64,000 nt of DNA from Bacilli bacterium (GCA_024408565.1 JAKSUW010000001.1:28498-92497), one strand, 5' to 3'; shown: positions 6,411 through 62,775, counted from the stretch's first letter. Numbers and translations: made by a program. Notes: a model not told the origin generated them from the letters alone.

Positions 6411-7424
6411 CTAATCTTTTGTTGTTTTCGTCTTATCGTCGTTTTTCTCGTCTTTAATACGCGCTAAAAGGTCATCGATTAAGGCTGGATGGTCTTTTAA
6501 ATAGTCTTTCGCGGTTTCGCGCCCTTGACCAATCTTCTCACCATCAAGTTCATACCAAGAACCAGCTTTTTTAATAAAGCCTTTCGCAATGGCCATATCT
6601 AAAATTTCGCTTTGGATCGAAATGCCTTGGCCATAAATAATATCGATTAAACAACTCTTAAATGGTGGCGCAACTTTGTTCTTCACCACTTTTACTTTCA
6701 CGGTGTTACCGATAATGTCGTTACCATCTTTAATGGCTTCGCTCCGCCGGATATCTAAACGAACCGTCGCATAGAATTTTAGTGCGCGGCCACCCGTAGT
6801 GGTTTCGGGGTTACCATACATCACCCCCACCTTTTCTCTTAATTGGTTAATAAAGATGACTGTGGTGTGAGTTTTATTTAAAACGCCCGCTAATTTACGC
6901 ATCGCTTTGCTCATTAAACGTGCTTGTAAACCAACTTGGTTATCACTCATGACGCCATCAATTTCCGCTTGGGGAACTAAGGCGGCTACCGAGTCAACCA
7001 CAATAATCGAAATTTCTCCTGATTGAGCTAACATTTCAGTAATTTCTAGTGCCTCTTCACCACTATCAGGTTGCGATAAGATTAATTCATCAATATCAAC
7101 CCCTAAGTGTTTCGCGTACACTGGATCAATTGAATGCTCAGCGTCGACAAACGCCGCTTTCCCGCCTTTCTTTTGGGCTTCGGCAATCGCGTGTAAGGCT
7201 AAAGTGGTTTTACCACTACTTTCGGGTCCGTAGATTTCAATAATCCGACCTTTTGGATAACCACCAACACCTAAAGTGTTATCAAGTAATAAGGAACCAG
7301 TGGAAATCGTATCAACATCCACGGGTGGACGGTCACCTAAGCGCATCACGCTTCCTTTCCCATAAATCTTCTCAATACTTTTTAAAGCATTTTCGAGATT
7401 AACATTTTTTTCTTCTTTTGACAT
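6411..7424 (-). CDS. recA: Recombinase RecA.
   Basis: Walker [13 protein letters not shown] and the canonical RecA core, 337 aa. Confidence 0.97.
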
Positions 7425-7455
7425 ATCTTGTCCTCCTACTTATAAATACGGAAAA

Positions 7456-7944
7456 TTACTTCTTCAGTTGACGCACAATTTTTAAAGTTTCCTCAATCAT
7501 CGTGGTCACAACCTTCGCTCTAATCGTGTTTCTCGAACCATGATAGACATGATAAATATTTTTTATTAAACCACGCTTTGGTTTACATAATATAGCGATA
7601 TGAACTCCTCCTACGGGAGCACCACCGGGTTCTTTACTTGGCCCCGCGTTACCCGTACAAGTGACCACTAAATCAGTTTTTAATAACTTCTCGCCTTCTT
7701 GTGCCATTGCGGTAGCAATCTCTTTGCTCACAACACCATATTTTTTGATTGTCGTAGATTTAATACCGAGTAAAGCAGTTTTAAAATTACTTTGATATGT
7801 TACAAGTCCACCACGAACAACTTTAGAAGCACCTGGGACTTCGGCTAAAGTGGCCACAAATAAACCCGCGGTTAACGATTCAACACTACCAATGGTTAAA
7901 TGATGCTTAGTTAATAATCTAACTAACTTAGTGGCGTTTTCCAT
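7456..7944 (-). CDS. cinA: CinA C-terminal domain protein (PncC-type NMN deamidase domain only).
   Basis: 162 aa. …SVESLTAGLFVATLAEVPGASKVVRGGLVTYQS… matches the CinA_C motif. The N-terminal MoCF domain is absent. Confidence 0.75.
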   Translation of the reverse strand: MENATKLVRLLTKHHLTIGSVESLTAGLFVATLAEVPGASKVVRGGLVTYQSNFKTALLGIKSTTIKKYGVVSKEIATAMAQEGEKLLKTDLVVTCTGNAGPSKEPGGAPVGGVHIAILCKPKRGLIKNIYHVYHGSRNTIRAKVVTTMIEETLKIVRQLKK

Positions 7945-9740: not shown

Positions 9741-10040
9741 ATGAAAGAACAAACACGCTTAATCGATATTGGTGATTTTATTAGCATTACTACACCAGAA
9801 AAAATGAAATTAATCATTTTACGTAATGTTATTGCGCGGAGAAAAGAAAGAAAGATATCGCAAATAGCTTTAGCCGAAAAAGCCAAAGTCAGCTATGGAT
9901 CGATTCGTCGTTTCGAAAAAACGGGCGAAATATCATTAAATTCATTACTAAAAATCGCTTTGGCCTTAGATTGCATTGAAGATTTTCGCGAAGTCTTTTC
10001 TCACGCGATTATTACTAATCTTAAGGACTATCAACCATGA
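9741..10040 (+). CDS. hipB: XRE-family HTH transcriptional regulator (HipB-like antitoxin candidate).
   Basis: 99 aa. The HTH reads …ISQIALAEKAKVSYGSIRRFEKTGEISLNSLLKIALAL. The stop overlaps the hipA-like start by 4 nt (ATGA). Confidence 0.65.
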   Translation: MKEQTRLIDIGDFISITTPEKMKLIILRNVIARRKERKISQIALAEKAKVSYGSIRRFEKTGEISLNSLLKIALALDCIEDFREVFSHAIITNLKDYQP

Positions 10041-11134
10041 TAAAAGAAATCGATAAGGTTACCGTTAAATATCAAGATCGCGTTGTTGGTTATTTAGTAA
10101 GAAATAAGGACCAACGCATTAGTTTTCAGTACGATGATGAATGGATACAAAATGGTTTTTCAATTTCTCCGTTATCTTTAAAATTAAGTAATCAAATATA
10201 TATCAACACCAAAGACCCATATAGTTTATTCGGCGTGTTTAATGATTCTTTACCAGATGGATGGGGCGAACTATTAGTCGCTCGCTATTTAGCAAGACAA
10301 GGAATCGATTATGATAAATTATCACCATTGACGAAACTAACCTTAATATCTAATAACGGCTTAGGCGGATTAAAATACGAGCCGACCCAAGGAGTTAGTC
10401 TACCTAATGATAAAAATTATGATTTTGATAAAATGGCGCAGGCAATCAAGGAACTTTTAAATGACGACTACCAAAAGAAAACCTTAGATGAGATATATCA
10501 ATTAGGCGGATCAAGTGGTGGCGCGCGCCCAAAAGCGCATATCAAAATTAAGCAGGAAGACTGGATTGTTAAATTCCCATCGCATATCGATTCGAAAAAT
10601 ATTGGGCAAGAAGAATACCACGCTAATTTATTAGCCAAAGAGTGCGGAATTAATGTCCCAGAAATTAAATTATTTCCTTCAAAAAAATGCCATGGATATT
10701 TCGGTGTGAAACGATTTGATCGGCAAAGTAACAAACCAATTCATATGATTTCGTTAGCCGCCATATTAGAAACGAGCCACCGCTTAGCTAATCTAGATTA
10801 TATTCATCTTTTCCAAGTAATTTCTATCATCGGTACAACCAATGATTTATATGAAGCGTTCCGGCGAATGTGCTTCAACGTTTATTACATGAATAAAGAT
10901 GATCATAGTAAAAATTTTTCATTTATCTATGATGAAAAAACGAATCATTACTATTTATCTCCCGCCTACGATCTCACGAAAACGAAAGATAAATTAGAAC
11001 ACGAAATGACCATTAACGGATCGCCTGACCCAAGCGACGATGATATATTAGCGGTGGCTCGTCGTTTTAAACTTGATATAAAGGTTTGCCAGGAAATCAT
11101 ACAAACGATAAAAGAGGTGGTTCAATATGATTAA
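10037..11134 (+). CDS. hipA: HipA-like Ser/Thr kinase (type II toxin-antitoxin toxin family).
   Basis: 365 aa. HipA N-terminal motif (…SLPDGWGELL…), a P-loop-like GGSSGGARPK, catalytic NKDDHSKNFS and SPAYDLTKT. Confidence 0.7.
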   Translation: MIKEIDKVTVKYQDRVVGYLVRNKDQRISFQYDDEWIQNGFSISPLSLKLSNQIYINTKDPYSLFGVFNDSLPDGWGELLVARYLARQGIDYDKLSPLTKLTLISNNGLGGLKYEPTQGVSLPNDKNYDFDKMAQAIKELLNDDYQKKTLDEIYQLGGSSGGARPKAHIKIKQEDWIVKFPSHIDSKNIGQEEYHANLLAKECGINVPEIKLFPSKKCHGYFGVKRFDRQSNKPIHMISLAAILETSHRLANLDYIHLFQVISIIGTTNDLYEAFRRMCFNVYYMNKDDHSKNFSFIYDEKTNHYYLSPAYDLTKTKDKLEHEMTINGSPDPSDDDILAVARRFKLDIKVCQEIIQTIKEVVQYD

Positions 11135-11705
11135 ATATCCAAACGGTGGCAGTTTCTCGCCAACGAGCAAAAAGAGTAAACCCCATAAACATATCGCGAG
11201 TGCCGCTAACCGCGGGATGAGTTTTGAAGACGCGATTAACCAAAGTAATGAGTTTTATCTTGAACGCGATATTGCGGTCATTACTAAACGCCCCACTCCG
11301 ATTAATGTGGTGAAAGTGGATTATTCGCACGGAGCGAAAATCACCCACGCCTATTTTGAAAAACAATCAACGACTGACTATAACGGCGTGTATAAAGGTC
11401 GTTATCTAGATTTTGAAGCTAAGAGTAGTAAAAATCCTACCTCATTCCCACTTAATAACATTACCCCACACCAAATTAAGCATCTAGAACGGGTGTTAAA
11501 GCACGGCGGAATTGCGTTCTTTTTAATCGAACTCACAAGTTTACACGAAGTATATTATTTATCCGCGGAGTACGTGATTAACTTTTATCATCACGCTAAA
11601 CGGAAATCCATCCCAATTAAAGACATTAAAAAAAGTGGGTATTTAATTAAGCCCACTCTTTTACCCCGCTACCACTATTTAGCGGTGGTCGATAAACTCT
11701 TATAA
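11127..11705 (+). CDS. recU: Holliday junction resolvase RecU.
   Basis: MIKYPNGG…NRGMSFEDAIN…TDYNGVYKGRYLDFEAK…FPL aligns with B. subtilis RecU as I recall it. The start overlaps the hipA-like stop by 8 nt. Confidence 0.9.
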   Translation: MIKYPNGGSFSPTSKKSKPHKHIASAANRGMSFEDAINQSNEFYLERDIAVITKRPTPINVVKVDYSHGAKITHAYFEKQSTTDYNGVYKGRYLDFEAKSSKNPTSFPLNNITPHQIKHLERVLKHGGIAFFLIELTSLHEVYYLSAEYVINFYHHAKRKSIPIKDIKKSGYLIKPTLLPRYHYLAVVDKLL

Positions 11706-25349: not shown

Positions 25350-25835
25350 TTAATAAACCGCCTTCCCTTTGTTCTTTAACACTTTCCGAATTTCGCGTTG
25401 TTGATCTTTCTTCTTAATCACTTCCCGCTTATCATATAGTTTCTTGGGTTTACCTAAGGCAATCTCTAATTTTGCGCGCCCTTTCTTAAAATACATCTTG
25501 GTCGGGATTAAGACTTGATTCGTGGTCTCGACGGCGACTTGATAACGCATGATTTCTTTCTTATGCATTAATAAACGACGCGTACGAAGTGGTTCATGAT
25601 TAAAGATATTGCCTTTCTCGTAAGGCGCGATATGCATGTTAATAACATAGGCTTCGCCTTTTTTAAAAACAACATAAGCGTCGTTAAGCGTTACTCCGTG
25701 GACTCGGAGTGATTTAATCTCCGTCCCTTTTAGTTCTAGTCCACATTCAATAAACTCACTTAAAAAATAGTTAAAGTGCGCTTTCCGGTTACTAGCAATT
25801 AGATGTGTATTACTCTTTTTCTTTTCCATCTTCAT
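25350..25835 (-). CDS. smpB: SsrA-binding protein SmpB.
   Basis: …NRKAHFNYFL…GTEIKSLR… and a basic C-terminal tail. Confidence 0.9.
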   Translation of the reverse strand: MKMEKKKSNTHLIASNRKAHFNYFLSEFIECGLELKGTEIKSLRVHGVTLNDAYVVFKKGEAYVINMHIAPYEKGNIFNHEPLRTRRLLMHKKEIMRYQVAVETTNQVLIPTKMYFKKGRAKLEIALGKPKKLYDKREVIKKKDQQREIRKVLKNKGKAVY

Positions 25836-28491
25836 TTCCTTGATTCATTACTTCCGCATGGGTGTCTTTAACATTCCGTGACTTACTAGGTACTTTAAGT
25901 AAGGCCGCCGCGGTATCACTCTGACTTAAGACGGAATGAGACATATATTTAAATGCGTGACCAATCTTAATAAGAATAAGTTTCGTATAGTTAAAGAAAT
26001 ATTCATCCCGTAACGCTAATAAGACAACATAATAAATCGCGGCGCCCATCCCCATTAAGATTAATAGATTCGCGAGATTATTCACATATCGCGCTTCGTC
26101 TAATAGTAAATAGTAAAGAAGCATACACGCTAAAAGCATCACGCCACCAGCGACAAGATACCGCCACACTAACTTACCAATCTCTTTAAGGGATAGATAT
26201 TCATGGAGATAGATATATTCCACAAAGAGAATGGCAAACTCAGAAATAAGGGTACCAATAATCGCCCCAACGGAACCAAAGAAGGGGATTAAGATACAGT
26301 TAAACACTAAGTTAGTGATAAAACCAATACCAACGGAAATCGCGTATTGTTTATCACGCTTAATCGGTAACATATATTGAGCACCTAAGATATTACTACA
26401 ACCCGCAATCACAATAACGGGAGCGTAAATCATTAAAAGTAACGCCACCTTATCATAGCCTTCCCCAAAGAAGAGGGGGACAAAGGAGTTAGCGACCGCC
26501 ATTGCGCCTAAGGCCATCGGAACACCAATCGCGAAAACAAACCGGAAGGAACGATAAACGTTTTGACGGATTAAATCTGGACGTTTGGAAGAATATTCAA
26601 TCGCGTTCTTGGTGCTCATTACCGTGCCAAAGGCTAAGATAATGGAAAGAATAGCCTTAATAATTCGATCGGCCTGGAAATAGTAACCATTCTCGAGGTC
26701 ACTAATATTCACAATAACCGAAATATAACCAATCTTTTGAATGGTTTGACCATGCACTAATATACCAATTAATGTTTTATCTAAAATCGCGTAGATAGAA
26801 ACGGCCGCTACGGGAATAAAGAGGGCTAAAGTTGATTTCATGTGTTTCTTAAAATCAAGATTCTTGAGTTTTACCCGGGCAAGGTTAAAAGGTAGCCCAA
26901 TCCAAGTGGATAAATAGCTCCCGAACACCATTAACGAATATAAAAGAATGTATAAATCAAGATCATAAGGGGTACGAACAAAGGCAAAGATTGAGATTAA
27001 GAAACCTACACGAATGATGAGGTTAATAATCATCACTAAGAAGAAGTTTTCTTTCCCATGGAAATAGAAATTAATATCAAAAGCGGATCCAGCAACGAGG
27101 ATTGAGAAGATTAAAACAAGCGAAGAATATTCACCAAAGACATTACAAGCATAAAGAATAAAAAGAATGCCTAAACTTAACGCGACCGGAACAAGCCGCA
27201 CAATAACAATCTGCCAAAAGACTTTACTTTGATCTTCCCGGTTCGCTTTCTTTTCCGCAATCGCTCGTTGAGCGTATTGGGTAAAGCCTAAGGAAGCGGC
27301 GATGACAAAATAACAAACGATTGTATTGGCAAACGAGAATTGACCAATATTACTAGGGCCAAGAATCCGCGCTACATAGGGAGCGGTAATTAGTGGCGTG
27401 ATTACCACTAAGATTTGGTAAATAACGTTAAAGACGAAGTTTAGATAATCATGGTTTTTATGTTGTTTCTTATCAAATGATTGGCTAATAGTTTCAGCGA
27501 TTTTTTGGTTATCGTATTTTTTTACCATCGCGGGAGTAATTGGCGCAGCAATCACTGGCGAAGTAACGGCCTTAGCCATCTCTTTTAAGCGATAAGGACT
27601 AAAGAAGATGGCTTCATCTTCATCAGCGAGTTCGCGGTTAGCAGCGATGTTAGAAAGAATTAACGGAGTGTTCGTAAACCGCGCATCAAGGACCGCGCTA
27701 GCAAAGCCCTCGTAGAAAGCTGGGTTCACTAATGCGTAAGCGTGCTTTAACTCATTCACATACGCTTCATCGGATAAGTCGTATTGAACAAGGATATGAG
27801 GATTTTTTTCTAGTTTTTTAAAGCGCCGGGCTTCGCGGAAGGTTAATACCTTCTTTTGGACCACCACGTGTAAATCATGCGGCCATTTACTTTCTTCTAA
27901 GGCCGTAATTAGGCGACGTAAGTTCCGGTGTGGAAGATCACGACCAACATAAAGTAAATAATTATCACGCTTAACAGGTTCACCGATATATTGTTGGAAG
28001 GATTTAGTAACACCCGGATGAATAACCGTAATCTCTTTTTTTGTTCCAAAATAGTTTTCAATTCGTTTCTTAGTGAATTCCGAAACGGTAAAGATTTTAC
28101 TCGCAATTCGGTAACTCCGTTTCACAATTCGGCGTTTAATCCAATCCGTATAAAAACGATGATTCCGTCTGGTATAATCGGTAAAGAGCATGTCATGGAT
28201 AATAAAATAACTATTGATTTTTATGCCCCGTGGAATCATGTAGTTAGTGGTTAAATAACAATCATAGTCATTAATCACTTTCGCGAGGTTATGGTTTAGA
28301 TAACCAAAGAAGGAGTGAGGCCGCGCTTTAGCGTGGATAATCTTACATGGTAGGTTTAATGGTTCGAGTAGATTTCGATCACCAATCACCGCGTATTCAT
28401 GATGTTGATAATCAAGGTTTTCAAGTAAGCCTAAAAGAAGGCTACCAATACTGCCCTGATTTAAACTACGCGCATCGATGATGATATGCAT
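25810..28491 (-). CDS. Fusion protein: N-terminal GT4/GT1 glycosyltransferase (~340 aa) plus a C-terminal Wzx-type polysaccharide flippase (PST family, ~12 TM).
   Basis: 893-aa single ORF. The GT fold carries …NPAFYEGFASAVLDA…. The flippase region …ILGPSNIGQFSFANT… has many TM helices. The 3' end overlaps the smpB start by 26 nt. Confidence 0.7.
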   Translation of the reverse strand: MHIIIDARSLNQGSIGSLLLGLLENLDYQHHEYAVIGDRNLLEPLNLPCKIIHAKARPHSFFGYLNHNLAKVINDYDCYLTTNYMIPRGIKINSYFIIHDMLFTDYTRRNHRFYTDWIKRRIVKRSYRIASKIFTVSEFTKKRIENYFGTKKEITVIHPGVTKSFQQYIGEPVKRDNYLLYVGRDLPHRNLRRLITALEESKWPHDLHVVVQKKVLTFREARRFKKLEKNPHILVQYDLSDEAYVNELKHAYALVNPAFYEGFASAVLDARFTNTPLILSNIAANRELADEDEAIFFSPYRLKEMAKAVTSPVIAAPITPAMVKKYDNQKIAETISQSFDKKQHKNHDYLNFVFNVIYQILVVITPLITAPYVARILGPSNIGQFSFANTIVCYFVIAASLGFTQYAQRAIAEKKANREDQSKVFWQIVIVRLVPVALSLGILFILYACNVFGEYSSLVLIFSILVAGSAFDINFYFHGKENFFLVMIINLIIRVGFLISIFAFVRTPYDLDLYILLYSLMVFGSYLSTWIGLPFNLARVKLKNLDFKKHMKSTLALFIPVAAVSIYAILDKTLIGILVHGQTIQKIGYISVIVNISDLENGYYFQADRIIKAILSIILAFGTVMSTKNAIEYSSKRPDLIRQNVYRSFRFVFAIGVPMALGAMAVANSFVPLFFGEGYDKVALLLMIYAPVIVIAGCSNILGAQYMLPIKRDKQYAISVGIGFITNLVFNCILIPFFGSVGAIIGTLISEFAILFVEYIYLHEYLSLKEIGKLVWRYLVAGGVMLLACMLLYYLLLDEARYVNNLANLLILMGMGAAIYYVVLLALRDEYFFNYTKLILIKIGHAFKYMSHSVLSQSDTAAALLKVPSKSRNVKDTHAEVMNQGNEDGKEKE

Positions 28492-28538: not shown

Positions 28539-29174
28539 TTATTTTGCGTCTTTACCCGATAAAACAACCACAATCGTTTTAAAGAAAATTTTGATATCAA
28601 GAGCGAGGGAACGGTGATAGACATAATAGATTTCCATCTTCACACGGTCTTCATAACGAACATTACTCCGACCATGGGCGCCCCAATAACCAGTTAAACC
28701 GGGTTTAACATAAAACAAATCTTCGTGACCCTGCCAAAGGAGTTGATACTCTTTTTCTTTAATCGGCCGTGGACCAATTAATGACATTTGACCAAAGAGA
28801 ATATTAAATAGTTGAGGTAATTCATCTAACGATGTTTTCCGTAACACTTTCCCCACTTTCGTAATCCGTGGATCGTTATCTAATTTATATTCTTTAAGGT
28901 ATTCCTTATAATCTTCGGGCGATAAAATTTCTTCAATTGGTCGGTCATCTTTTTTCATCGAACGAAATTTAATCACTTTAAATGGTTTATGGTTCTTACC
29001 TAACCGGGTGTCTAGATAAAATGGACCGCCCGGTGAAGTTAATACAATCACTAGGGAAAGAATGATAAGAAGTGGCGATAAAATTAATAACGAAATAAGT
29101 GCCACAAAAATATCAAACAAGCGTTTAATAAATTGATATATCAATTTTCTTTTAAAATTATTGGGCGTATCCAT
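28539..29174 (-). CDS. Small monotopic phosphoglycosyl transferase (PglC/WbaP C-terminal domain family, bacterial sugar transferase).
   Basis: One N-terminal TM helix, then …FKVIKFRSM… and DELPQLFNILFGQMSLIGPRP. Confidence 0.8.
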   Translation of the reverse strand: MDTPNNFKRKLIYQFIKRLFDIFVALISLLILSPLLIILSLVIVLTSPGGPFYLDTRLGKNHKPFKVIKFRSMKKDDRPIEEILSPEDYKEYLKEYKLDNDPRITKVGKVLRKTSLDELPQLFNILFGQMSLIGPRPIKEKEYQLLWQGHEDLFYVKPGLTGYWGAHGRSNVRYEDRVKMEIYYVYHRSLALDIKIFFKTIVVVLSGKDAK

Positions 29175-30174
29175 TGGGATTTAATTTTTGCCAATGATAG
29201 GCATCCTTACACATATCTTCGATGGTATAAAGCGCGGACCAACCAAGTTCTTTTTTCGCTAATTTAACATCCGCGTAATTTTCTGCGACATCACCCGCAC
29301 GACGGGGGCCAAATTGGTAATTAACTTTGACATTATTCACCCGGGCAAAGGTCGTCACTAATTCTAAAACGCTAGTGCCTTTTCCAGTCCCAAGATTATA
29401 AATTTTTAAACCCCATTTTTCTTTAATCGCTTTTAAGGCAGCGACATGCCCCAACGCTAAATCAACCACGTGAATATAATCACGCACACCAGTGCCGTCT
29501 TTTGTTGGATAATCCTTACCAAAGATGGTGAGTTCTTTCCGTCGCCCAACCGCGGTTTGGGTGATATAAGGCATTAAATTATTGGGTGTTCCCCATGGAT
29601 CTTCACCCATGAGTCCACTTTGGTGCGCACCCACTGGATTAAAGTAACGAAGTAAAACAATATTCATACTAGGATCTTGCTTAGCTTCCGCCATCAAAAG
29701 CTTTTCAATTTCAATTTTTGTTTGGCCGTATGGATTAGTGGCTTGACCAATTGGATCAGTTTCTAGTAAAGGGACGTGTTTTGGTGTTCCATAGACAGTG
29801 GCGCTACTAGAAAAGATAATGTTTTTTACTTGGTACTTTTTCATCACCTTAATTAAGGTCTTACTCGAACCCACGTTATTATCAAAATAGAGCTTTGGTT
29901 TTTCGACTGACTCACCCACCGCTTTTAAACCCGCAAAGTGGATTACGGCGTCAAATTTTTCTGACGCAAAACAAGCATCAAGCTTCGCTTCATCCCGGAC
30001 ATCAAACTCATAGAAGGCTGGTTTAACACCGGTAATTTTTTGAATGCGGTTAAGCACTTCTTTATTGGAATTAACCAGGTTATCAATAATCACTGGGGTG
30101 TGCCCCGTTTTAATTAATTCGACGCAAGTATGGGAACCAATATAACCCATCCCACCTGTCACACAAATCTTCAT
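29158..30174 (-). CDS. galE: UDP-glucose 4-epimerase.
   Basis: GGMGYIGSH Rossmann motif, YxxxK and GalE-like overall. 338 aa. Confidence 0.85.
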   Translation of the reverse strand: MKICVTGGMGYIGSHTCVELIKTGHTPVIIDNLVNSNKEVLNRIQKITGVKPAFYEFDVRDEAKLDACFASEKFDAVIHFAGLKAVGESVEKPKLYFDNNVGSSKTLIKVMKKYQVKNIIFSSSATVYGTPKHVPLLETDPIGQATNPYGQTKIEIEKLLMAEAKQDPSMNIVLLRYFNPVGAHQSGLMGEDPWGTPNNLMPYITQTAVGRRKELTIFGKDYPTKDGTGVRDYIHVVDLALGHVAALKAIKEKWGLKIYNLGTGKGTSVLELVTTFARVNNVKVNYQFGPRRAGDVAENYADVKLAKKELGWSALYTIEDMCKDAYHWQKLNPNGYAQ

Positions 30175-31598
30175 TATTTCTTCCTCCGATTTAATTCTTC
30201 AATCATAATTTTACTCGTTAATGCAGGATTAACTTTTCCGCCACTCTTTTTCATTACTTGACCAATTAAAAAGCCAAGCGCGCGGTCTTTACCATGATGA
30301 TAATCGCTAATTGATTGAGCGTTATTATCTAATACTTCAATGACTAACTGACGAATCGTTATATCACTACTATCTTGGTTAACAATACCAAGTTTTTCTT
30401 TGGCGTTCTTCACATCAAGATGCTCTTTTAACATACAGGCGAACACTTCACGGCCCTGTTTATTAGAGATATGACCTAACTCAATCTCGTTAATGAGTTC
30501 AACTAGTTGATTAGGCGTAATGGTTAACTCTTTAATACTTAAACCCGCTTTATTTAAATAGGCAGTAATGTCCACCATTAACCAGTTAGCAATCGCCTTA
30601 TAATGTTTCGATAATTTTGCGCAATCATCAAAATAAGAAGTGATATCTAAACTCGCTAAAAGGATATTCGTATCATATTCACTTAAACCAAATTGTTTTT
30701 GGTAACGTTCCCGTTTTTCACTCGCTAATTCGTGACTAGTTTTAATCGCGTCATTAATAAACTCGTCACTTAATTTAATGGGGATCAAATTATCTTCGGT
30801 AAAGTATTTATAATCAACCGAATCCGTCTTCACCCGCATCGCTTTAGTGGCTTTATGTTCTTCATCATAGCGGCGAGTTTCTTGGATAATTTTTTCACCA
30901 CTTTCAATCGCCTTAATTTGTCGAGCAATCTCGTAATCAAGCGCAATCTTGATGTGGTTAAAGGAGTTAATGTTTTTGACTTCGACTTTTGTTCCTAAGG
31001 TTTTACTATCCGCGCGTTTCACTGAGACGTTAACGTCACAACGTAATTGTCCTTCTTCCATCTTGCCATCACTCACGCCTAAGAAGAGCACAATCTCACG
31101 GATTGTTTCCACATATTTAGCGGCGACTTCGGCACTATGAATACATGGTTTCGTAACAATTTCCATTAATGGAATACCTGCCCGGTTATAGTCCACTAAA
31201 GTGAACTTCGGGAAGTGCAATTGTTTCGCTGTATCTTCTTCTAGATGTAGCCGTTCAATTAAAACTTTTTCTTTGCCAATCATTAAATAACCATCATGAC
31301 CAAGTGGGCGTTTATCTTGGGTGATTTGATAACCTTTTGGTAAGTCACTATAAAAATAATTCTTGCGGTCAAAATGAAGTTCATGATCAATTTCCATATG
31401 TAAAGCGTGAGCGACTTGAATCGCGTTAATCACCGCTTGTTTATTAGGGATTGGCATCGTGCCCGGGAAGGCTAAATCATACGCACTCGTTAAGGTATTA
31501 GGTTCTTGCATAAAGCCAACCGGCGAAGAAGAGAACATCTTCGACTTCGTCTTCATTTCAACGTGGATTTCTAGCCCAATAGTGACATCGTAATTCAT
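30174..31598 (-). CDS. gatB: Asp/Glu-tRNA amidotransferase subunit B.
   Basis: MNYDVTIGLEIHVE… and a GatB/YqeY C-terminal domain. 474 aa. Confidence 0.95.
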   Translation of the reverse strand: MNYDVTIGLEIHVEMKTKSKMFSSSPVGFMQEPNTLTSAYDLAFPGTMPIPNKQAVINAIQVAHALHMEIDHELHFDRKNYFYSDLPKGYQITQDKRPLGHDGYLMIGKEKVLIERLHLEEDTAKQLHFPKFTLVDYNRAGIPLMEIVTKPCIHSAEVAAKYVETIREIVLFLGVSDGKMEEGQLRCDVNVSVKRADSKTLGTKVEVKNINSFNHIKIALDYEIARQIKAIESGEKIIQETRRYDEEHKATKAMRVKTDSVDYKYFTEDNLIPIKLSDEFINDAIKTSHELASEKRERYQKQFGLSEYDTNILLASLDITSYFDDCAKLSKHYKAIANWLMVDITAYLNKAGLSIKELTITPNQLVELINEIELGHISNKQGREVFACMLKEHLDVKNAKEKLGIVNQDSSDITIRQLVIEVLDNNAQSISDYHHGKDRALGFLIGQVMKKSGGKVNPALTSKIMIEELNRRKK

Positions 31599-33052
31599 TT
31601 TTTATTCCTCGCGCTGAGATTAAAATAACCTAATTTATCTTCGAGAGCTTTAGCGATATTAAAAAGTTTAGCTTCCATAAAGGGCTTCGCGGTTAAGTTA
31701 AACCCAAAGGGCATATTATCTTTAAAACCAACTGGAAGGGTTAAGGAAGGATAACCACCAAAGTTACCAATACACATATAGTTATCGGCAATTAAATATT
31801 CATCCTGTAATTGGTTAGTGACGCTATCAAAACGTGGTGCAATTGAAGGCGAAGCAGGCGCATAAATCACATCATAATCTTTGAAGATCTTATTTATCTC
31901 ATCGACAATCTTATGACGGTTCTTCGCGGCCCGTAAAAAGAGCTCGTTTTGGTTTTCTTTCATTAAAGCAAAACTACCTAAGACAAACCGGCGTTTAATT
32001 CTTTCTGAGAAACCAGCGGTCCGCGCTTTCTTCATTACTTCAATATAATTATCCGCATCGTAATAAGGACCAAATTTAATGCCATCAAGATTCGCGTTAT
32101 TACTTGTCGCTTCCGCGCAAGAAATAATGTAATAGGTTGGGAAAAGGGTCATAAGTAAATGTTTATCCAGATGGACATAATCTACTTTCGCGCCAAGGCT
32201 TTGATAAATCTTAATCGTTTCGTTAAAGCGTTTAATAATATCTTGATCAGTAAACGAATCAATAATCTCTTGGATAACAGCAATTTTCACTCCCTTTAAC
32301 GGGTTATTTAGCTCTTTCGTATAATCGTCAACTTGAACAAGGCTTGAAGTATAATCCGCTTCATCATGACCCGCTAAAACGTTTAATAAAATCGCTGCGT
32401 CTTCCACGCTCCGGGTAAAGAAACCTAAAGCGTCTAAACTGGGGACAAAGGGGAATAAACCGAAACGGGAAATCCGGCCCCAGGTGGGTTTAAAACCAAC
32501 TAGTCCCGCAAAACTAGCGGGTTTACGAATGGAGTCACCGGTGTCACTTCCTAACGCAAAGGGAACAATACTAGAACTAACCACGCTTGCTGAACCACAA
32601 GAAGAACCCGCAATCATCCTAGTATGTGATGGATCATAGGGGTTATAAGTTTTGCCTAAATGACCAGTCGTACCAGAGCCACCCATCGCTAATGAATCAA
32701 GGGTGGTTTTCGCAATCATGACCGCTTTCTTCGCTTTTAATTTACTGATAGCGGTCGCATCAAAAATTGGGACATAACCATTTAAGATATCGGCACTTGC
32801 GGTAGTAGGAATATCTTTCGTTGAAATATTATCTTTAACTGCGAAAGGGATTCCCCATAAAGGATTATCTTTTTCAGGTGTAGTAAGAGTTTTAGCAAAT
32901 GCTAAAGCTTCTTGTTCACAAAGATATTCAATCGCGTTATTCTTGTCTTCCTTGATGCGTTTAATCGCTTCGCTAGTTAATTCAAGTGGCGTTACTTGTT
33001 TCTTTACTAACGCTTCATGCATCGCGGTGATGGTTAAATCTAAATAGTTCAT
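31595..33052 (-). CDS. gatA: Glutamyl-tRNA(Gln) amidotransferase subunit A.
   Basis: Amidase signature GGSSGGSA-like (…IAGSSCGSASVV…). 485 aa. Confidence 0.95.
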   Translation of the reverse strand: MNYLDLTITAMHEALVKKQVTPLELTSEAIKRIKEDKNNAIEYLCEQEALAFAKTLTTPEKDNPLWGIPFAVKDNISTKDIPTTASADILNGYVPIFDATAISKLKAKKAVMIAKTTLDSLAMGGSGTTGHLGKTYNPYDPSHTRMIAGSSCGSASVVSSSIVPFALGSDTGDSIRKPASFAGLVGFKPTWGRISRFGLFPFVPSLDALGFFTRSVEDAAILLNVLAGHDEADYTSSLVQVDDYTKELNNPLKGVKIAVIQEIIDSFTDQDIIKRFNETIKIYQSLGAKVDYVHLDKHLLMTLFPTYYIISCAEATSNNANLDGIKFGPYYDADNYIEVMKKARTAGFSERIKRRFVLGSFALMKENQNELFLRAAKNRHKIVDEINKIFKDYDVIYAPASPSIAPRFDSVTNQLQDEYLIADNYMCIGNFGGYPSLTLPVGFKDNMPFGFNLTAKPFMEAKLFNIAKALEDKLGYFNLSARNKK

Positions 33053-33361: not shown

Positions 33362-37605
<4,244 letters not shown>

Positions 37606-38155: not shown

Positions 38156-38644
38156 TTACTTAGCGCTCGCACTAGGGAGGTCTTTAAGACTATTGGCTTT
38201 AACAATATAATCAAGGCGATTTTCTAATTTATCAATTCGGGCGTTAACTTGTTTAAAACCTTTATCAACTGTTTCTGCTAAAACCATAACAGTAGTGGTT
38301 AATTGATCCACGCGCTTACTTAGTTTATCCACTGTACAACTAATTTGATCAACCCGCTTACCGAGCTTATCAACTGTATAACCAATTTGATCAACCCGCT
38401 TACCGAGCTTATCAACTGTATAACCAATTTGATCAACACGCTTGCCTAAGTTATCGACAGTATTGCTTAGTTGATCAACCTTCTCACCTACTTGATTGAG
38501 TGTATATTTTTTCTTTCGTTTCGGATTTTTAGGTTTCACTAGTTTGTCTCCTTTTTCATCATACACCGGAATTTTGTATAGATGGGATAAATTATCGGGA
38601 ATTTTTCTTATTTCTCCGACGGTCATCAATTTTTTCTTTTCCAT
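38156..38644 (-). CDS. Repeat-containing coiled-coil protein (DUF16-like C-terminus), paralog of the 16942 gene.
   Basis: 162 aa. Internal 14-aa tandem repeats (VDKLGKRVDQIGYT ×3 plus degenerate copies). The C-terminus GFKQVNARIDKLENRLDY is shared with the 100-aa paralog. Confidence 0.6.
   Translation of the reverse strand: MEKKKLMTVGEIRKIPDNLSHLYKIPVYDEKGDKLVKPKNPKRKKKYTLNQVGEKVDQLSNTVDNLGKRVDQIGYTVDKLGKRVDQIGYTVDKLGKRVDQISCTVDKLSKRVDQLTTTVMVLAETVDKGFKQVNARIDKLENRLDYIVKANSLKDLPSASAK
38263..38505. repeat. About six tandem 42-bp repeats inside the coding sequence. Units 38347-38388 and 38389-38430 are identical.
   Basis: GATCAACCCGCTTACCGAGCTTATCAACTGTATAACCAATTT ×2 perfect copies, flanked by diverged 42-bp copies. 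In frame (14 aa per unit). Confidence 0.85.
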
Positions 38645-42192: not shown

Positions 42193-43317
42193 TTAGATTG
42201 TTTTACTTATTTCGCTAAATAACTTAGTAAAAGCGTTCGCAAATTGTTGGTAATTAAATAGCTCTTTAGCCCGTGCCATACCATTCTCCGCATAACGATT
42301 TCTTAATGCCTTATTCGATCTTAAAACATTGATCGCATCACGGAAGGCGGTGACATCTTTATTGGGGCATTCAATCCCGGTTTCTTCGCCCTTAGAAATA
42401 TAGTTCACACCACTTCCAGGGATAGTAAAAGTAATTGGCGATTTACCTAACGCTATCACTTCGATAAGGGTAATCGGGAAAGCTTCGTTTTTGGCAATTG
42501 AAGGGAAAAGATAAAAATCACAAGCGTGGAGATATTTAATATATTGTTCGCGGTCTAATTGGCCAAGATAAATAACATTAGGTCCACCCCGATCAATCGC
42601 GTGTTCAAGATGGCGATTAATTTCGCCTACCCGTCCCACTAAGAAGAGAACATTATCCATATTCTTCACGGCTTTAAGAGCGAGATTTAATCCCTTGGTA
42701 GGGGTATGGCGACCCGAAAAGAATAACAAGGTTTTACCCCGATAACGTTTTTTAATCTTTGCGACTTCTTCTTGCAGTTTTTCGTCTAAAACAAAATCAC
42801 TCTCTTTATAGCAAAGAGGAATAATTTTTATCTTCTCTTTAAAGTGTTGAAGTTCTTTACTACCATCAACGTATTGTTGGGAATGACATAAGATGACATC
42901 CGCCCGACGCTTCGTCCGATATTCAATCGGTTTAACTAAGTGTTTTAAAATCTTTTGCCGCCAGATATCAAGGTGGTGATAAACAATTACTTTGCCACGA
43001 AAATCAATGTGTTGAAAATAAAATTCCACTAAGGGATTAGGCGTATGGATTAAAACAATCTCCGGCGCAAACTTAGCGACTAATTCGCGTAATTTACGGC
43101 GATAGCTAAGCGAAATCGGTTGCGAACGAAATTTAAAAGCGTACGGAACGCGGGTAACGCGAACATCATCAACAATGTGTGGACCATCACCAAAACAAAT
43201 CACACGTTGTTCATATTGACCACTACTTTTAAGTGCGTTCACTATATCGCGAGTCGCAGTTTCAATCCCACCAACGTGTGGATAGTAATAATTAGTGATG
43301 TGTAATACCTTCACCAT
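42193..43317 (-). CDS. Glycosyltransferase family 4.
   Basis: MVKVLHITNYYYPHVGGIE… and a GT4 C-terminal domain. 374 aa. Confidence 0.75.
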   Translation of the reverse strand: MVKVLHITNYYYPHVGGIETATRDIVNALKSSGQYEQRVICFGDGPHIVDDVRVTRVPYAFKFRSQPISLSYRRKLRELVAKFAPEIVLIHTPNPLVEFYFQHIDFRGKVIVYHHLDIWRQKILKHLVKPIEYRTKRRADVILCHSQQYVDGSKELQHFKEKIKIIPLCYKESDFVLDEKLQEEVAKIKKRYRGKTLLFFSGRHTPTKGLNLALKAVKNMDNVLFLVGRVGEINRHLEHAIDRGGPNVIYLGQLDREQYIKYLHACDFYLFPSIAKNEAFPITLIEVIALGKSPITFTIPGSGVNYISKGEETGIECPNKDVTAFRDAINVLRSNKALRNRYAENGMARAKELFNYQQFANAFTKLFSEISKTI

Positions 43318-52239: not shown

Positions 52240-52902
52240 TTAAAAGAAAGTGCCACGCGCTTGCTTTTTGGTTTCGGTATCCACGCTGAATGGAATCCGA
52301 GTGGTATAGCCTTTCTTCGCGGCTACCATCTTCTTGGTGGGCCAAGCAAAGATCGCTGCGTTCCATTCTAAGACAGTGTCATTATAAACTTCACGCGCTG
52401 CGGTAATTTCTTTTTGTAAGTAGGCGTTTTGTTGCATCGCATCTTCAAGCTCTTGGTGGGCCTTTAAGTTAGGATAATTTTCAATCGCCACATTGATTTT
52501 CTTGTTCACTTCTTCAATCGCCCGAGCTTGTTCATTACGACCAGCATCAGGATTGTTGCCACTTCTTAACGCGGCAATCTTCGTGAAGGTGCTCTTATCA
52601 AAATCAACCGCTTTGTCTAAGAGTTTCGCGGTGTTCTTAAGAATTTGCACTCTTTGTTCAAGATAGTTATCGATTTGTGAAGCATCGTGGTTCACTTTTT
52701 GTTGTAATGCATTTAAGTAGTTAGTGGCGCTCATTCTGACGAGTAAGAAAATTAAACCCGGAATGATGCCTAACACAAAGAGGACGACAACAAAAATAAC
52801 GCTACCCGCTCCTGTCTTGGGTGCGATTTGTTTTTCAATAACATGAACGTCCCGGCCTTGTTCGTTCACCGGAGCAGTCATCTCATCTAGTTCATTTGCC
52901 AT
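52240..52902 (-). CDS. lemA: LemA family protein.
   Basis: N-terminal TM plus a LemA domain (…NTAKLLDKAVDFDKSTFTKIAALR…NYPNLKA…). AAGGAG RBS. Confidence 0.85.
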   Translation of the reverse strand: MANELDEMTAPVNEQGRDVHVIEKQIAPKTGAGSVIFVVVLFVLGIIPGLIFLLVRMSATNYLNALQQKVNHDASQIDNYLEQRVQILKNTAKLLDKAVDFDKSTFTKIAALRSGNNPDAGRNEQARAIEEVNKKINVAIENYPNLKAHQELEDAMQQNAYLQKEITAAREVYNDTVLEWNAAIFAWPTKKMVAAKKGYTTRIPFSVDTETKKQARGTFF

Positions 52903-52914
52903 AAATTATTCTCC

Positions 52915-59110: not shown

Positions 59111-60715
59111 ATGGAAAAAATTGACTTATCTCAATACGGCATTAAAAATGCCACAGAAATTATTCGCAACCCTTCTTATGAGTTTTTATTTAGCGAAGAA
59201 ACTAAACCCGAACTCACCGGTTACGAAAAAGGCGTGCTAACCGAATTAGACGCTGTAAACGTGATGACTGGTATTTATACTGGCCGTTCACCCAAAGATA
59301 AATTTATCGTGATGGATGATCGCTCCAAAGATACTGTTTGGTGGACCACTCCCGAATATAAAAATGATAACCACCCTGCGAGTCAAGCTGCGTGGGAAGT
59401 CGTGAAAAAGATTGCCATCGAAGAATTATCTAACAAGAAATTATATGTAGTTGATGCCTATTGTGGCGCTAACAAAGATACGAGAATGGCCGTCCGCTTC
59501 ATTATGGAAGTTGCCTGGCAAGCTCACTTTATTAAAAATATGTTTATTCAACCAAGCGAGGCAGAATTAGCTAATTTTAAACCTGATTTCGTGGTCTATA
59601 ACGCTTCCAAAGCCAAAGTCACTAACTTTAAAGAATTAGGTTTAAATAGTGAAACTGCGGTGGTCTTTAATATCTCCTCACGCGAGCAAGTCATTATTAA
59701 TACTTGGTATGGTGGCGAGATGAAGAAAGGCATGTTCTCGATGATGAATTATTATCTTCCTTTAAAAGGTATCGCGAGTATGCACTGCTCAGCGAACACT
59801 GACCTTAATGGTAAAGATACTGCCATCTTCTTTGGCTTATCAGGTACTGGTAAAACTACCTTATCAACCGATCCAAAACGTTTACTCATTGGTGATGATG
59901 AACATGGTTGGGACGATAACGGCGTCTTTAACTTTGAAGGTGGTTGCTACGCCAAAGTTATTAATCTTGATAAAGATAGCGAACCCGATATCTACCGGGC
60001 AATTAAACGTAATGCGTTATTAGAAAATGTCACGGTGGACCAAAACGGGAAGATTAATTTCGCGGATAAATCCGTCACCGAAAATACACGCGTGTCTTAT
60101 CCAATTAATCATATTGATAAGATTGTAAAGCCGATTAGTAGCGCACCCGCAGCGAAGAACGTCATCTTCTTAAGCGCTGATGCTTTTGGTGTCTTACCAC
60201 CCGTAAGCATCTTAACCCCTGAACAAACCCAATATTATTTCTTAAGTGGCTTTACGGCGAAACTAGCTGGTACTGAAAGAGGGATTGTTGAACCAACGCC
60301 AACTTTCTCGGCCTGTTTTGGTCAAGCCTTCCTTGAATTACCACCCACTAAATACGCTGAAGAATTAGTGAAGAGAATGCAAAAAAGTGGCGCTAAAGCT
60401 TATCTTGTCAATACTGGCTGGAACGGCACTGGTAAACGGATTTCGATTAAGGATACACGTGGTATTATTGATGCCATCTTAAATGGTTCAATTAACCAAG
60501 CACCCACGAAGACGATTCCTTACTTTAATTTAGCCGTACCAACTGTTTTGCCAGGTGTTGACACTAACATCCTTGATCCACGTGACACCTATGCGAACAA
60601 AGCGGATTGGGATAAAAAAGCGATTGATTTAGCGAATCGCTTTGTCAAAAACTTTAACAAATACACCACTAATGATGCCGGCAAGGCATTAGTGAAAGCT
60701 GGACCTAAAATTTAA
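59111..60715 (+). CDS. pckA: Phosphoenolpyruvate carboxykinase (ATP).
   Basis: …[13 protein letters not shown]… kinase-1a motif plus PEPCK-ATP family length and motifs. Confidence 0.95.
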
Positions 60716-60727
60716 TAAGGAGGATTT

Positions 60728-62098: not shown

Positions 62099-62102
62099 AG
62101 GT

Positions 62103-62399
62103 ATGTATCAAGGAATTTGGCCCGAAGGTGAATTTACCTTCTTAGACTCATTACTTGTCAGTTTAATTGCGATTCTTCTCGTCTTCTTAGTTTTAATCAT
62201 TATTATTTTGGTCACTCACGGGGTGAAGCTAGGAACGGATAAAGCCGACTCCTTAACTCACATTAACCCGAAGGCCGAAAATAAATTATTAGACGAAGAT
62301 CAAGACGCGGTTGTCGCAGCGTTAACCGCCACGATTGATTTCCACAAGGAAACCGGTAAAAACGCTGAATTAGTCAGTATTGAAAGGATAGATGAATAA
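62103..62399 (+). CDS. oadG: Small single-TM subunit, probably the OadG-like gamma subunit of the Na+-pumping decarboxylase.
   Basis: 98 aa with an N-terminal TM helix. Sits between the alpha and BCCP genes. Confidence 0.5.
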   Translation: MYQGIWPEGEFTFLDSLLVSLIAILLVFLVLIIIILVTHGVKLGTDKADSLTHINPKAENKLLDEDQDAVVAALTATIDFHKETGKNAELVSIERIDE

Positions 62400-62773: not shown

Positions 62774-62775
62774 GT

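Follow-up and report, generated by a model that had tools for sequence, protein, structure and literature searches.

A GT4 glycosyltransferase fused in frame to a 14-TM PST-family flippase in an uncultured horse-gut bacterium

A fusion gene inside a housekeeping run

We analysed a 64-kb stretch of DNA (the window) from the metagenome-assembled genome (MAG) of an uncultured horse-gut bacterium. An uninterrupted single ORF with an ATG start on the minus strand (25810..28491) encodes a protein of 893 aa, for which the original prediction had proposed a GT4 glycosyltransferase (GT) N-terminus joined in frame to a PST-family flippase. The ORF, the Pfam domains and the homologues described below all bear this out. 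Pfam matches above the gathering scores were obtained for Glyco_transf_4 (aa 90-161), Glycos_transf_1 (aa 173-311) and Polysacc_synt (aa 351-624), the last of which supports a flippase in the C-terminal half, and the peptide quoted in the prediction, ILGPSNIGQFSFANT, was found at aa 376-390. The protein is a 100% match to NCBI entry MCQ2793795.1 (P0001 in our set), annotated only as a [quoted passage not shown]; public annotation conceals the GT half of the fusion proteins.

Four regions can be delimited along the protein, all encoded on the minus strand. The GT4/GT-B domain (aa 1-338; 27478..28491), predicted to be cytoplasmic, is followed by a linker of eight residues that connects the last GT-B helix to TM1 (aa 339-346; 27454..27477), placed by the alignment and by a dip in pLDDT. 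The linker has a constant length and a variable, basic sequence, with a mean identity of 26% in the family alignment; in the AF2 model pLDDT falls to 55-61 here, and a helix starts directly afterwards, at H347. The 14-TM MOP/PST flippase domain (aa 347-828; 26008..27453) has an N-in/C-in topology and leads into a cytoplasmic C-terminal tail of ~65 aa (aa 829-893 plus the stop codon; 25810..26007), delimited by alignment and pLDDT. This tail opens with a semi-conserved amphipathic stretch, FxYTKxxL...GHxFK, and is common to fused and unfused relatives; its residues 846-893 are modelled at low confidence (pLDDT < 50). The AF2 model as a whole, with a GT-B fold and 14 TM helices, has a pLDDT of 78.6. 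Its pTM of 0.56 is too low for a reliable prediction of how the two domains are oriented to each other, and the case for channelling between them is therefore drawn only from the short tether.

Directly upstream on the same strand, as had been predicted, lie a small monotopic phosphoglycosyl transferase (PGT) of 211 aa (28539..29174) and galE, encoding UDP-glucose 4-epimerase (29158..30174; TIGR01179, 425 bits vs. a cut-off of 262). The PGT is of the PglC/WbaP-C-terminal type: it matches Bac_transf (PF02397) at 202 bits, while TIGR03025/WbaP/WcaJ-type matches all fall below the full-length cut-offs. Its translation contains a hydrophobic N-terminal helix broken by S-P (LLILSPLLII) and the motifs KFRSM, SLDELPQL and GPRP; the Bac_transf domain, the length of ~200 aa, the re-entrant helix and the Asp-Glu dyad of PglC-like enzymes are all present. 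Beyond galE, the gatB and gatA ORFs overlap or abut (30174..33052, minus strand; assigned from Pfam matches of the syntenic genes in relatives). On the other side, the last codons of the fusion gene run into smpB (25350..25835, minus strand; SmpB Pfam/TIGR00086). The predicted overlap of 26 nt is correct and shrinks to 20 nt if the second ATG of smpB is the start, as it is in the near-identical locus L006; in L001-L004 and L008 the overlap is conserved at 11-44 nt.

The sugar genes thus sit inside a tightly packed housekeeping run from gatCAB to smpB and an ECF-S gene, and the order gatCAB-galE-[X]-smpB is syntenic throughout the clade. One sugar-nucleotide gene, galE, precedes the flippase gene in all relatives examined, either directly or with one PGT or GNAT gene between. 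We found no convincing internal terminator within the gatCAB-smpB run. Since a promoter/terminator scan returned sites no more numerous than in shuffled controls, the operon structure is read from gene packing only.

The fusion recurs in independent assemblies

That the fusion is real and that its domains are correctly identified is, in our judgement, nearly certain. Adjacent GT and flippase genes might have been merged by a frameshift in sequencing or assembly, or by loss of a stop codon, a suspicion raised by the metagenomic source of the sequence and by the fact that such genes often adjoin in glycan clusters. Against it stand 11 non-identical full-length homologues (885-906 aa, 50-66% identical) from four data sources (NCBI, JGI, ENA and Logan assemblies), in which the junction is near-constant in length, with indels of only one or two residues, all upstream of the linker. 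The reading frame is intact in these 11 and in a second MAG, which at 93.7% nucleotide identity carries the same 893 continuous codons; a further assembly holds an N-terminal fragment of the fusion that is 83% identical. Homologues, junction and second MAG together rule out a frameshift or assembly artefact, whose probability we put at next to nothing. Between the second MAG and the window, synonymous changes outnumber non-synonymous ones by 59 to 8 in the GT half and by 82 to 7 in the flippase half. Judged by these counts, both halves are under purifying selection, which is strong in the GT half.

Searches for the parts lead to the same conclusion. A search with aa 1-339 for stand-alone homologues of the GT half returned nothing above 30% identity, only three weak matches at 23-30%; its word-index-limited sensitivity missed the fused proteins too. 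Using tblastn on all loci examined, the GT half was present nowhere but in fusion genes. In an exhaustive search both halves were matched together only by the members of the fusion family itself.

The GT half keeps donor-site motifs

The GT domain matches Glycos_transf_1 at 46.0 bits (cut-off 26.4) and Glyco_transf_4 at 34.2 bits (cut-off 28.5), and has the two-Rossmann-domain GT-B fold. Its motifs in the window protein are the N-terminal D6-A7-R8 and G13, H188-(K/R)189-N190 and E261-x7-D269. Fifty-one residues are invariant among the 11 family members, including those of the DAR/G13 motif and, in the donor-phosphate loop, H188-K/R189-N190, where residue 189 is Arg in the window protein and Lys in 10/11. 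E261 is kept in 10/11, the first Glu being lost in P0011, and position 269 is acidic in all (Glu in nine; Asp in two, with Asp in the window protein). Because the E-x7-E motif reads E-x7-D here and P0011 is without its first Glu, we can only infer from these motifs that the domain is catalytically competent. The GT half also diverges faster than the flippase half, with a mean identity of 49.8% vs. 67.3%. In structural comparisons, the Und-PP-acting GT4 enzymes PglA, PglH and WbnH score higher than DGD2, and only marginally higher than BshA and sucrose-phosphate synthase, which act on soluble acceptors.

A 14-TM flippase related to TacF

The C-terminal half matches Polysacc_synt (PF01943) at 69.2 bits vs. 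a cut-off of 28.2 and has the MOP fold, with two six-helix lobes round a central cavity. It had been predicted to have 12 TM helices; hydropathy, AF2 secondary structure and homology to the 14-TM TacF instead agree on 14. The domain is to be classed with the 14-TM PST proteins of the TacF/MurJ type instead of the 12-TM Wzx proteins. By sequence it resembles TacF (E = 4e-21 over ~480 residues in a PDB sequence search), and by fold MurJ and WzxE. A β-hairpin lies in the external TM7-TM8 loop (aa 582-595). By hydropathy, loops 2-3, 6-7, 8-9 and 10-11 and the C-terminal tail are rich in Lys and Arg and share one side of the membrane with the N-terminus, which places the GT domain in the cytoplasm.

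Among 23 sequences, R375, R409 and R494 of the flippase domain are invariant, and position 609 is Lys or Arg in 23/23. Position 628 is Arg in 22/23, the window protein having Lys. R494 corresponds to TacF R152 and K/R609 to TacF R250, while position 628 lies beside TacF R269; the cavity and gate roles of the TacF residues are taken from PMC13385700. R375, R409, R494 and positions 609 and 628 would be cationic residues that line the cavity or gate for a diphosphate.

Variation at the locus and in the family

With galE, PGT and fusion gene side by side, the window had been read as a three-gene minimal pathway. That reading is too strong, because the PGT is found at the fusion locus only in the sub-clade of the window (the window, L006, L012 and L015); in most relatives the locus consists of galE and the fusion only, with no adjoining PGT. 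Other members have a PGT orthologue, 60-64% identical, at a different locus beside a gene for a Wzy_C-family ligase/polymerase. We found this pairing in three other genomes of the clade, where the Wzy_C-family gene (497-508 aa) is convergent to the PGT orthologue and is sometimes accompanied by rml genes, a pyruvyl transferase and further GTs. The original prediction had called for a check for a Wzy or ligase elsewhere: no Wzy polymerase or Wzy_C homologue lies within the 64-kb window, as judged by tblastn and Pfam scans, and the candidate is the Wzy_C-family gene of these three genomes.

In a sister clade the same locus holds a flippase, 55-61% identical, that carries no GT. An outgroup-rooted distance tree of fused and unfused relatives indicates that the fusion is ancestral and that the GT was deleted once, in this one clade (200/200 bootstraps). 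Physical coupling of GT and flippase is not obligatory, since the sister clade keeps its flippase without a GT.

The fusion had been called uncommon, and it is: clustered at 50% identity, the family leaves a single representative among 1.84 billion. The exhaustive search confined the GT4::flippase pairing to this one small family. Related flippases occasionally carry a GT2, Caps_synth, LicD, Acyl_transf_3 or Wzy domain instead. These uncharacterised fusions comprise GT2::flippase (P0081, in which an N-terminal GT is joined just before TM1, as in the window fusion), flippase::GT2 (P0156), flippase::Caps_synth (P0098), LicD::flippase (P0170), flippase::Acyl_transf_3 (P0035, P0038) and flippase::Wzy (P0040). 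In all seven, the flippase half is 33-40% identical to that of the window and is fused to a glycan-assembly enzyme; the partner domains differ from that of the window protein and represent independent fusion events. None of the seven contains a homologue of the window GT4 domain, a single stretch being matched each time. The closest longer relative of the flippase, P0028 (843 aa), was considered as a diverged GT::flippase and rejected, its 346-aa N-terminal extension being a polytopic membrane domain. A limited literature search found no natural GT::Wzx/PST fusion already described.

A proposed pathway and its alternatives

We give a probability of roughly 60% to the following mechanism taken whole, including an Und-PP-linked substrate and functional coupling of GT and flippase. 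The fusion gene would produce a bifunctional membrane protein. GalE would provide UDP-Gal (or UDP-GalNAc), the small monotopic PGT would prime undecaprenyl phosphate to give an Und-PP-sugar, and the GT would assemble an undecaprenyl-PP-linked oligosaccharide and pass its product to its own flippase. Because only eight residues part the GT from the gate helix TM1, the finished lipid-linked unit would be released beside the entrance of that flippase; in TacF and MurJ, TM1 and one other helix make up the lateral substrate gate. The 14-TM TacF-like MOP/PST flippase would then carry the unit to the outer leaflet, and outside a Wzy_C-family enzyme, not encoded in the window, probably ligates or polymerises it onto the final acceptor. 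Domain identity and fold, topology, conservation of and selection on the fusion, synteny and the direction of evolutionary change are results of the analysis; the lipid carrier, the sugars, the hand-off from GT to flippase and the downstream acceptor are all inferred.

Pointing towards this mechanism are the conserved donor-site motifs, the cationic residues shared with TacF, the constant proximity of galE, the adjacent PGT in four lineages, the Wzy_C gene beside the PGT orthologue in three other genomes of the clade, and the recurrence of enzyme fusions among related flippases. Other features weigh against it. The TM1 gate arginine of TacF, R15, aligns with an invariant Gln; the structural match of the GT to Und-PP-acting GT4s barely exceeds that to BshA and sucrose-phosphate synthase; and a whole sister clade runs without a GT at the locus, which means that the flippase can work unfused. 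A bolder version we consider rather unlikely. In it, the fusion would be a channelling and quality-control device, adding the last sugar and releasing the unit at the TM1/TM8 gate so that only finished units are exported, and the product would be a type-IV-lipoteichoic-acid-like lipoglycan, which a TacL-like Wzy_C ligase, acting after the TacF-like flippase, would attach to a glycolipid from the window's second GT4, in a reduced-genome, possibly wall-less lineage of gut Bacilli. The original prediction had also thought the coupling suited to a reduced envelope; the 64 kb of the window carry no cell-wall genes, a result that bears on this part of the genome only.

A different substrate would be implied if the protein followed the logic of MprF/LtaA, with the GT4 glycosylating diacylglycerol or glycosyl-DAG from UDP-Gal and the fused transporter flipping the product as an anchor for the membrane or a lipoglycan, without any polyprenyl carrier. 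The galE-plus-fusion locus of most relatives fits such a glycolipid synthase-flippase, and membrane-lipid synthase-flippase fusions are known, GT-PplT among them (10.1101/2022.03.11.483950). We nevertheless find it improbable: all characterised MOP/PST, MVF and OLF flippases handle polyprenyl-diphosphate-linked glycans (PMC13385700), the family has kept the cationic cavity residues that it shares with TacF, the PGT adjoins in four lineages and has an orthologue elsewhere in three other genomes examined, and PglA, PglH and WbnH outscore DGD2. The substrate might also be lipid II, the flippase half serving as the organism's MurJ and the GT decorating the peptidoglycan precursor. The 14-TM MurJ-like architecture superposes well on the MurJ structure, the gene occupies a conserved housekeeping position, and some unfused relatives carry a weak precomputed match to the MurJ family PF03023. 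In the window protein, however, Pfam gave no PF03023 match at E <= 0.01, and the PDB sequence search that placed TacF so high returned no MurJ chain at E <= 1. Its partners include no mur genes but galE, a hexose-type PGT and Wzy_C. MurG belongs to GT28, not GT4. We regard a role in lipid II export as very improbable.

A further alternative keeps the flippase and changes the GT, which as a non-catalytic pseudo-enzyme would bind a nucleotide sugar or lipid-linked glycan and sense or gate, regulating the flippase without adding sugar. The E-x7-D variant, the missing first Glu of P0011, the faster evolution of the GT half and the retention of the flippase where the GT was deleted are what one would then expect. 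The exchange of Asp for Glu is conservative, though, with E261 almost universal and residue 269 always acidic, and neither the 51 invariant residues, which cover the N-terminal and donor-phosphate motifs, nor the strong purifying selection on the GT half fits easily with lost catalysis; we think a pseudo-enzyme about as improbable as the glycolipid route. The polyprenyl-linked pathway with an active GT is the reading we carry forward.

Significance

The fusion is real and conserved, a rare variation on familiar machinery and no new type of system; its components are themselves ordinary, and its significance is therefore moderate. The finding bears on how flippases of the Wzx/TacF type avoid exporting unfinished lipid-linked glycans. 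TacF screens for finished units via phosphocholine. A finishing (or early) GT tethered eight residues from the gate helix suggests another solution, proximity and hand-off. The unfused sister clade, with the same locus, is a natural control that makes GT-flippase coupling testable, and if the channelling reading is true, the fused and unfused clades offer a ready-made test of the specificity of MOP flippases for complete units. More widely, recurrent fusions of PST flippases to GT2, LicD, acyltransferase or Wzy domains could help to predict the substrates of orphan flippases.

Relation to characterised systems

The closest solved relative, although a distant one, is TacF, the teichoic-acid repeat-unit flippase of Streptococcus pneumoniae (PDB 9XZN; PMC13385700). 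The two share the 14-TM PST architecture with the groove helices TM13-14, the unwound TM2 and TM8 motifs of TacF are partly retained, and its proximal-site arginines R152 and R250 are conserved. The phosphocholine-coordinating R230 and R333, in contrast, are replaced by G581 and V692, both almost invariant within the family, D340 is replaced by Ser, and the gate residue R15 by Gln. No LicD or choline-kinase Pfam matches were found among the ORFs >= 150 aa of the 64-kb window. TacF has no fused enzyme domain, unlike the window protein. It acts upstream of the Wzy_C ligase TacL (PMC5727136), and the window flippase has a likely downstream Wzy_C-family partner too, judging by the gene in the three related genomes.

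The Wzx flippases for O-antigen and ECA (WzxE, PDB 9G95) belong to the same superfamily and to the same Pfam family, Polysacc_synt, and the Wzx/Wzy-dependent pathway runs in the same order, from PGT through GTs and flippase to a Wzy/ligase-type enzyme. Classic Wzx proteins have 12 TM helices, without TM13-14 (PMC13385700), and stand alone in a dedicated glycan cluster, whereas the fusion gene lies in the housekeeping gatCAB-smpB run. The PglC-PglA N-glycosylation pathway of Campylobacter (PDB 8DQD), whose GT4 acts on an Und-PP-monosaccharide, likewise places a GT4 after a small monotopic PGT. Sequence identity reaches only 13-15%, and PglA is a free peripheral protein, unlike the fused GT4. 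For flipping, Campylobacter uses the ABC transporter PglK and no fused MOP protein. The PplT fold is unrelated to MOP, and the substrates of MprF/PplT proteins are phospholipids or glycolipids, not polyprenyl-PP-glycans. Fusions of PplT to GT-A and GT-B domains have been reported (10.1101/2022.03.11.483950), and these fusions follow the same principle as the window protein: a cytoplasmic synthase covalently joined to the translocator of its lipid product.

A conserved glycosyltransferase-flippase fusion

The fusion gene (25810..28491, minus strand) is a single uninterrupted ORF of 893 codons. Its product matches Glyco_transf_4 (aa 90-161), Glycos_transf_1 (aa 173-311) and Polysacc_synt (aa 351-624) in Pfam, each above the gathering cut-off, confirming the predicted joining of a GT4 glycosyltransferase (GT) to a flippase. 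Matches to NCBIfam models are weak and sub-threshold, to Agl16, Cps2T and TuaC in the N-terminal half and to Wzx_EPS and MOP flippase models in the C-terminal half. An identical protein from a 'Bacilli bacterium' MAG at NCBI, MCQ2793795.1, carries no annotation beyond 'polysaccharide biosynthesis C-terminal domain-containing protein'. On the strand of the fusion gene, a 211-aa phosphoglycosyl transferase (PGT) with a Bac_transf domain (28539..29174) and galE (29158..30174), which scores above the TIGR01179 equivalog cut-off, lie upstream; galE and the PGT gene directly follow gatA and gatB. Downstream, smpB overlaps the last 26 nt of the fusion ORF, and an ECF S-component gene comes next. Both the upstream neighbours and the overlap had been predicted. 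The other genes in the window are housekeeping genes (rny, recA, RNase P RNA class B, der, cmk, rplM, ligA, pcrA, tsaBDE and others). Overall, the original prediction was confirmed as an observation and partly supported in its interpretation.

Searching 5.8 billion proteins through a word index turned up 11 distinct homologues of full length (885-906 aa, 50-66% identity) from NCBI, JGI, ENA and Logan assemblies, all of which contain both Pfam domains. In their alignment the length of the GT-flippase junction is near-constant, and nearby indels are limited to 1-2-residue gaps upstream of the linker. A second horse-faeces MAG (Horse_feces342, locus L006) is 93.7% identical in nucleotide sequence across the fusion gene and keeps all 893 codons. 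Synonymous codon differences between this gene and that of the window greatly outnumber non-synonymous ones in the GT half (59 vs. 8) and in the rest of the gene (82 vs. 7), so both halves are under strong purifying selection. In another locus, L015, the assembly stops 133 codons into a GT domain 83% identical to that of the window. The frame is thus continuous in independent assemblies, and an artefact is the less well supported explanation. Judged from these sequences, the GT4::TacF-type-flippase fusion is genuine, conserved and under selection.

Architecture and comparison with TacF

In the AlphaFold2 model of the fusion protein (mean pLDDT 78.6, pTM 0.56), strands and helices alternate in a GT-B fold over aa 1-338. 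An 8-residue linker modelled at low confidence (aa 339-346) leads into 14 long helices (aa 347-826), with a β-hairpin modelled at aa 582-595, and the C-terminal tail is modelled poorly. Hydropathy gave 14 segments matching these helices and placed the Lys/Arg-rich loops 2-3, 6-7, 8-9 and 10-11 and the tail on the N-terminal side of the membrane. Because these share one side, the topology is predicted to be N-in/C-in, with a cytoplasmic GT. In Foldseek comparisons the GT half was closest to Campylobacter PglA (TM 0.70-0.71), followed by HepE, BshA, MshA and PimA, and the membrane half matched MurJ in several states (TM 0.65-0.69). Across the 11 fused proteins, 51 residues of the GT half are invariant, including D6-A7-R8, G13, H188 and N190; E261 is present in 10/11, and position 269 is Glu in nine and Asp in two, one of them the window protein. 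Fused and unfused members of the family share a β-hairpin in the external TM7-TM8 loop (aa 582-595; 26707-26748) and a cytoplasmic C-tail of ~65 aa (25810-26007), both family-specific; ordinary flippases, of 480 aa, lack the tail. The unfused clade and the fused protein P0009 also have eight additional residues inserted near the hairpin, in an external loop that comes later.

Among solved structures, pneumococcal TacF (9XZN) alone is related to the membrane half by sequence (E = 4e-21, ~480 residues aligned), and no MurJ chain matched. TacF, MurJ and RFT1 have a common 14-TM architecture with an undecaprenyl-tail groove made by TM13-14, while Wzx proteins have 12 TM helices (PMC13385700). The predicted '12-TM Wzx-type' flippase should therefore read '14-TM TacF-type PST flippase'. 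We mapped TacF functional residues through a HMMER alignment, whose offset was checked by each named TacF arginine falling on an Arg. R152 corresponds to an invariant R494, and R250 to the position of R609, which is K or R in 23/23 sequences. TacF R269 (TM8) is offset by one position from K628, next to an alignment gap; 22/23 sequences have R at the latter position. In contrast, the phosphocholine-coordinating R230 and R333 are replaced by G581 and V692, D340 by S699, and the TM1 gate residue R15 by an invariant Gln. The flippase thus resembles TacF in architecture and in its general cationic cavity, but the headgroup that it recognises would be a different one.

Locus organisation and evolution

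Across the clade, the order gatC-gatA-gatB-galE-[X]-smpB-ECF-S is conserved, usually followed by rplM-rpsI, with a variable [X]. This position holds the PGT and fusion genes in the window, L006, L012 and L015, the fusion alone in L001 (UBA1719) and L008 (Horse_feces347), and a 562-575-aa flippase lacking a GT in L003, L004, L005, L009 and others. In L002 (ENA ERZ27234655) a GNAT acetyltransferase gene (7385-7939) lies between galE and the fusion gene, where the window has the PGT. Various glycan-related genes can apparently occupy this galE-flippase slot.

Unfused proteins share 55-61% identity with the flippase half of the window protein and start with a short Lys-rich tail ~15 residues ahead of a shared RRNFxFNxIYQ motif. 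Six plain flippases (36-41% identity) served to root a neighbour-joining tree built on the flippase half. In it, the ingroup and the flippase-only proteins were each monophyletic in 200/200 bootstraps and the fused proteins in 0/200; the flippase-only clade grouped with the fused P0006 and P0009 in 197/200. As the flippase-only clade nests among fused proteins, the tree indicates that the fusion was ancestral to the family and that the GT domain was deleted once. With only ~18 nt between galE and the flippase gene, unfused loci hold no remnant of the GT domain. The main value of the family is that nature provides a fused/unfused pair in which enzyme-flippase coupling can be studied.

A proposed pathway with genes at two loci

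Orthologues of the window PGT (60-64% identity, 205-209 aa) occur in 'Bacilli bacterium' MAGs, including genomes whose galE locus has no PGT: Horse_feces347 (fused; L013), Horse_feces345 (unfused; L014) and GCA_045615605.1 (unfused; L016). In all three (L013 7796-11147, L014 4177-6327, L016 1226-11120) the PGT gene lies by ptsI-ptsH-pfkB, convergent with a gene for a 497-508-aa membrane protein. These membrane proteins are ~41% identical to one another, and two of the three match Wzy_C (PF04932). This domain is that of O-antigen ligases and of the TacL ligase, which attaches pneumococcal teichoic acid chains to a glycolipid anchor downstream of TacF (PMC5727136). A polysaccharide pyruvyl transferase gene lies nearby in L013, and rmlA/B/C/D-type genes and a 694-aa GT2+GT4 protein in L016. 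The PGT/Wzy_C locus appears to be a glycan island whose content varies while its site is fixed. Abi_2/DndB-type defence genes inserted near it are among the variable extras in these genomes.

The window has no homologue of the Wzy_C-family protein, and its ORFs of at least 150 aa gave no Wzy, LCP, Wzz or Mur/PBP match. Because the PGT orthologue sits apart from the galE locus in relatives, beside a Wzy_C-family gene, the 'three-gene minimal pathway' originally proposed is better described as split over two loci. The PGT beside galE and the fusion in the sub-clade of the window would be most simply explained by relocation. A second, stand-alone GT4 of 374 aa (Glyco_transf_4 and Glycos_transf_1; 42193-43317, minus strand) has tsaD on one side and a class-II aminoacyl-tRNA synthetase gene on the other, with weak sub-threshold NCBIfam matches only (TuaC, WcaI, PglJ, BshA). 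This enzyme may serve the pathway as an additional GT, or else act as a glycolipid-anchor synthase.

In the pathway we propose, GalE, assigned by gene identity, would supply UDP-Gal or UDP-GalNAc, and the PGT, assigned to its family, would form undecaprenyl diphosphate (Und-PP)-sugar from a presumed substrate. The fold, motifs and selection of the fused GT4 suggest that it adds a sugar at the cytoplasmic face. Since the 8-residue tether reaches TM1, and TM1 and TM8 form the lateral entrance of TacF (PMC13385700), the product may be passed to the adjacent flippase gate. Export of the unit by the flippase is consistent with its family membership and conserved cationic residues, and the Wzy_C enzyme of relatives would ligate or polymerise the unit outside.

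Three other readings of the protein are less well supported: that the flippase half is a lipid II flippase, that the GT half is a non-catalytic GT-like gating module, and that the whole protein is a DAG-glycolipid synthase/flippase.

Other features of the window

At 52240-54681 (minus strand) a LemA-family gene is followed by one for a 588-aa protein of the NCBIfam 'MAG1210 family' (516 bits, cut-off 275), and 38156-38644 encodes a DUF16-like coiled-coil protein, below threshold. Together these hint at Mollicutes-type gene families in a 'Bacilli' MAG; the genes read with standard code 11, without UGA recoding. A 95-nt tRNA-Ser(tga) called by ARAGORN (36242-36336, plus strand) is probably a false positive, as it lies inside an opposite-strand 748-aa UvrD/PcrA helicase ORF (35359-37605) and Rfam reports no tRNA there. 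Within 10037-11705 (plus strand), the gene for a 365-aa HipA-like kinase (Couple_hipA and HipA_C domains) overlaps the start of recU. A PEP carboxykinase gene and, after it, genes for the alpha and beta (Na+-pump) subunits of oxaloacetate decarboxylase (59111-63984, plus strand) point to sodium-motive decarboxylation energy metabolism. Among the records with clade proteins, GCA_024500545.1 lists many different ones, each on a gene-sized contig, and looks like a gene-catalogue-type record, not a genome.

Rarity of the fusion and known systems

Run exhaustively against 1.84 billion representatives clustered at 50% identity, phmmer gave 24,341 matches at E ≤ 0.001. Of the 150 best, a single representative, P0005, matched both halves, which bears out the predicted rarity of the coupling; P0021 represents the unfused sisters, and the next flippases are 30-44% identical. 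About 20 of these 150 far exceed a plain flippase in length, and Pfam identifies independent fusions among them: GT2::flippase (P0081, joined just before TM1 like the window fusion), flippase::GT2 (P0156, a weak match), flippase::Caps_synth (P0098), LicD::flippase (P0170), flippase::Acyl_transf_3 (P0035, P0038) and flippase::Wzy polymerase (P0040). Several long relatives have unannotated membrane extensions. In five relatives (P0052, P0069, P0107, P0154 and P0164) an N-terminal extension of 470-540 aa matches nothing in Pfam. With several independent fusions, PST flippases joined to enzymes of their own pathway form a recurrent, individually rare theme, and the GT4::flippase version is one small, clade-restricted family. 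We found no description of a natural GT::Wzx/PST fusion in the literature searched; in MprF and other PplT-domain fusions, the closest parallel described, a synthase is likewise joined to a flippase, and some of these fusions include GT domains (10.1101/2022.03.11.483950).
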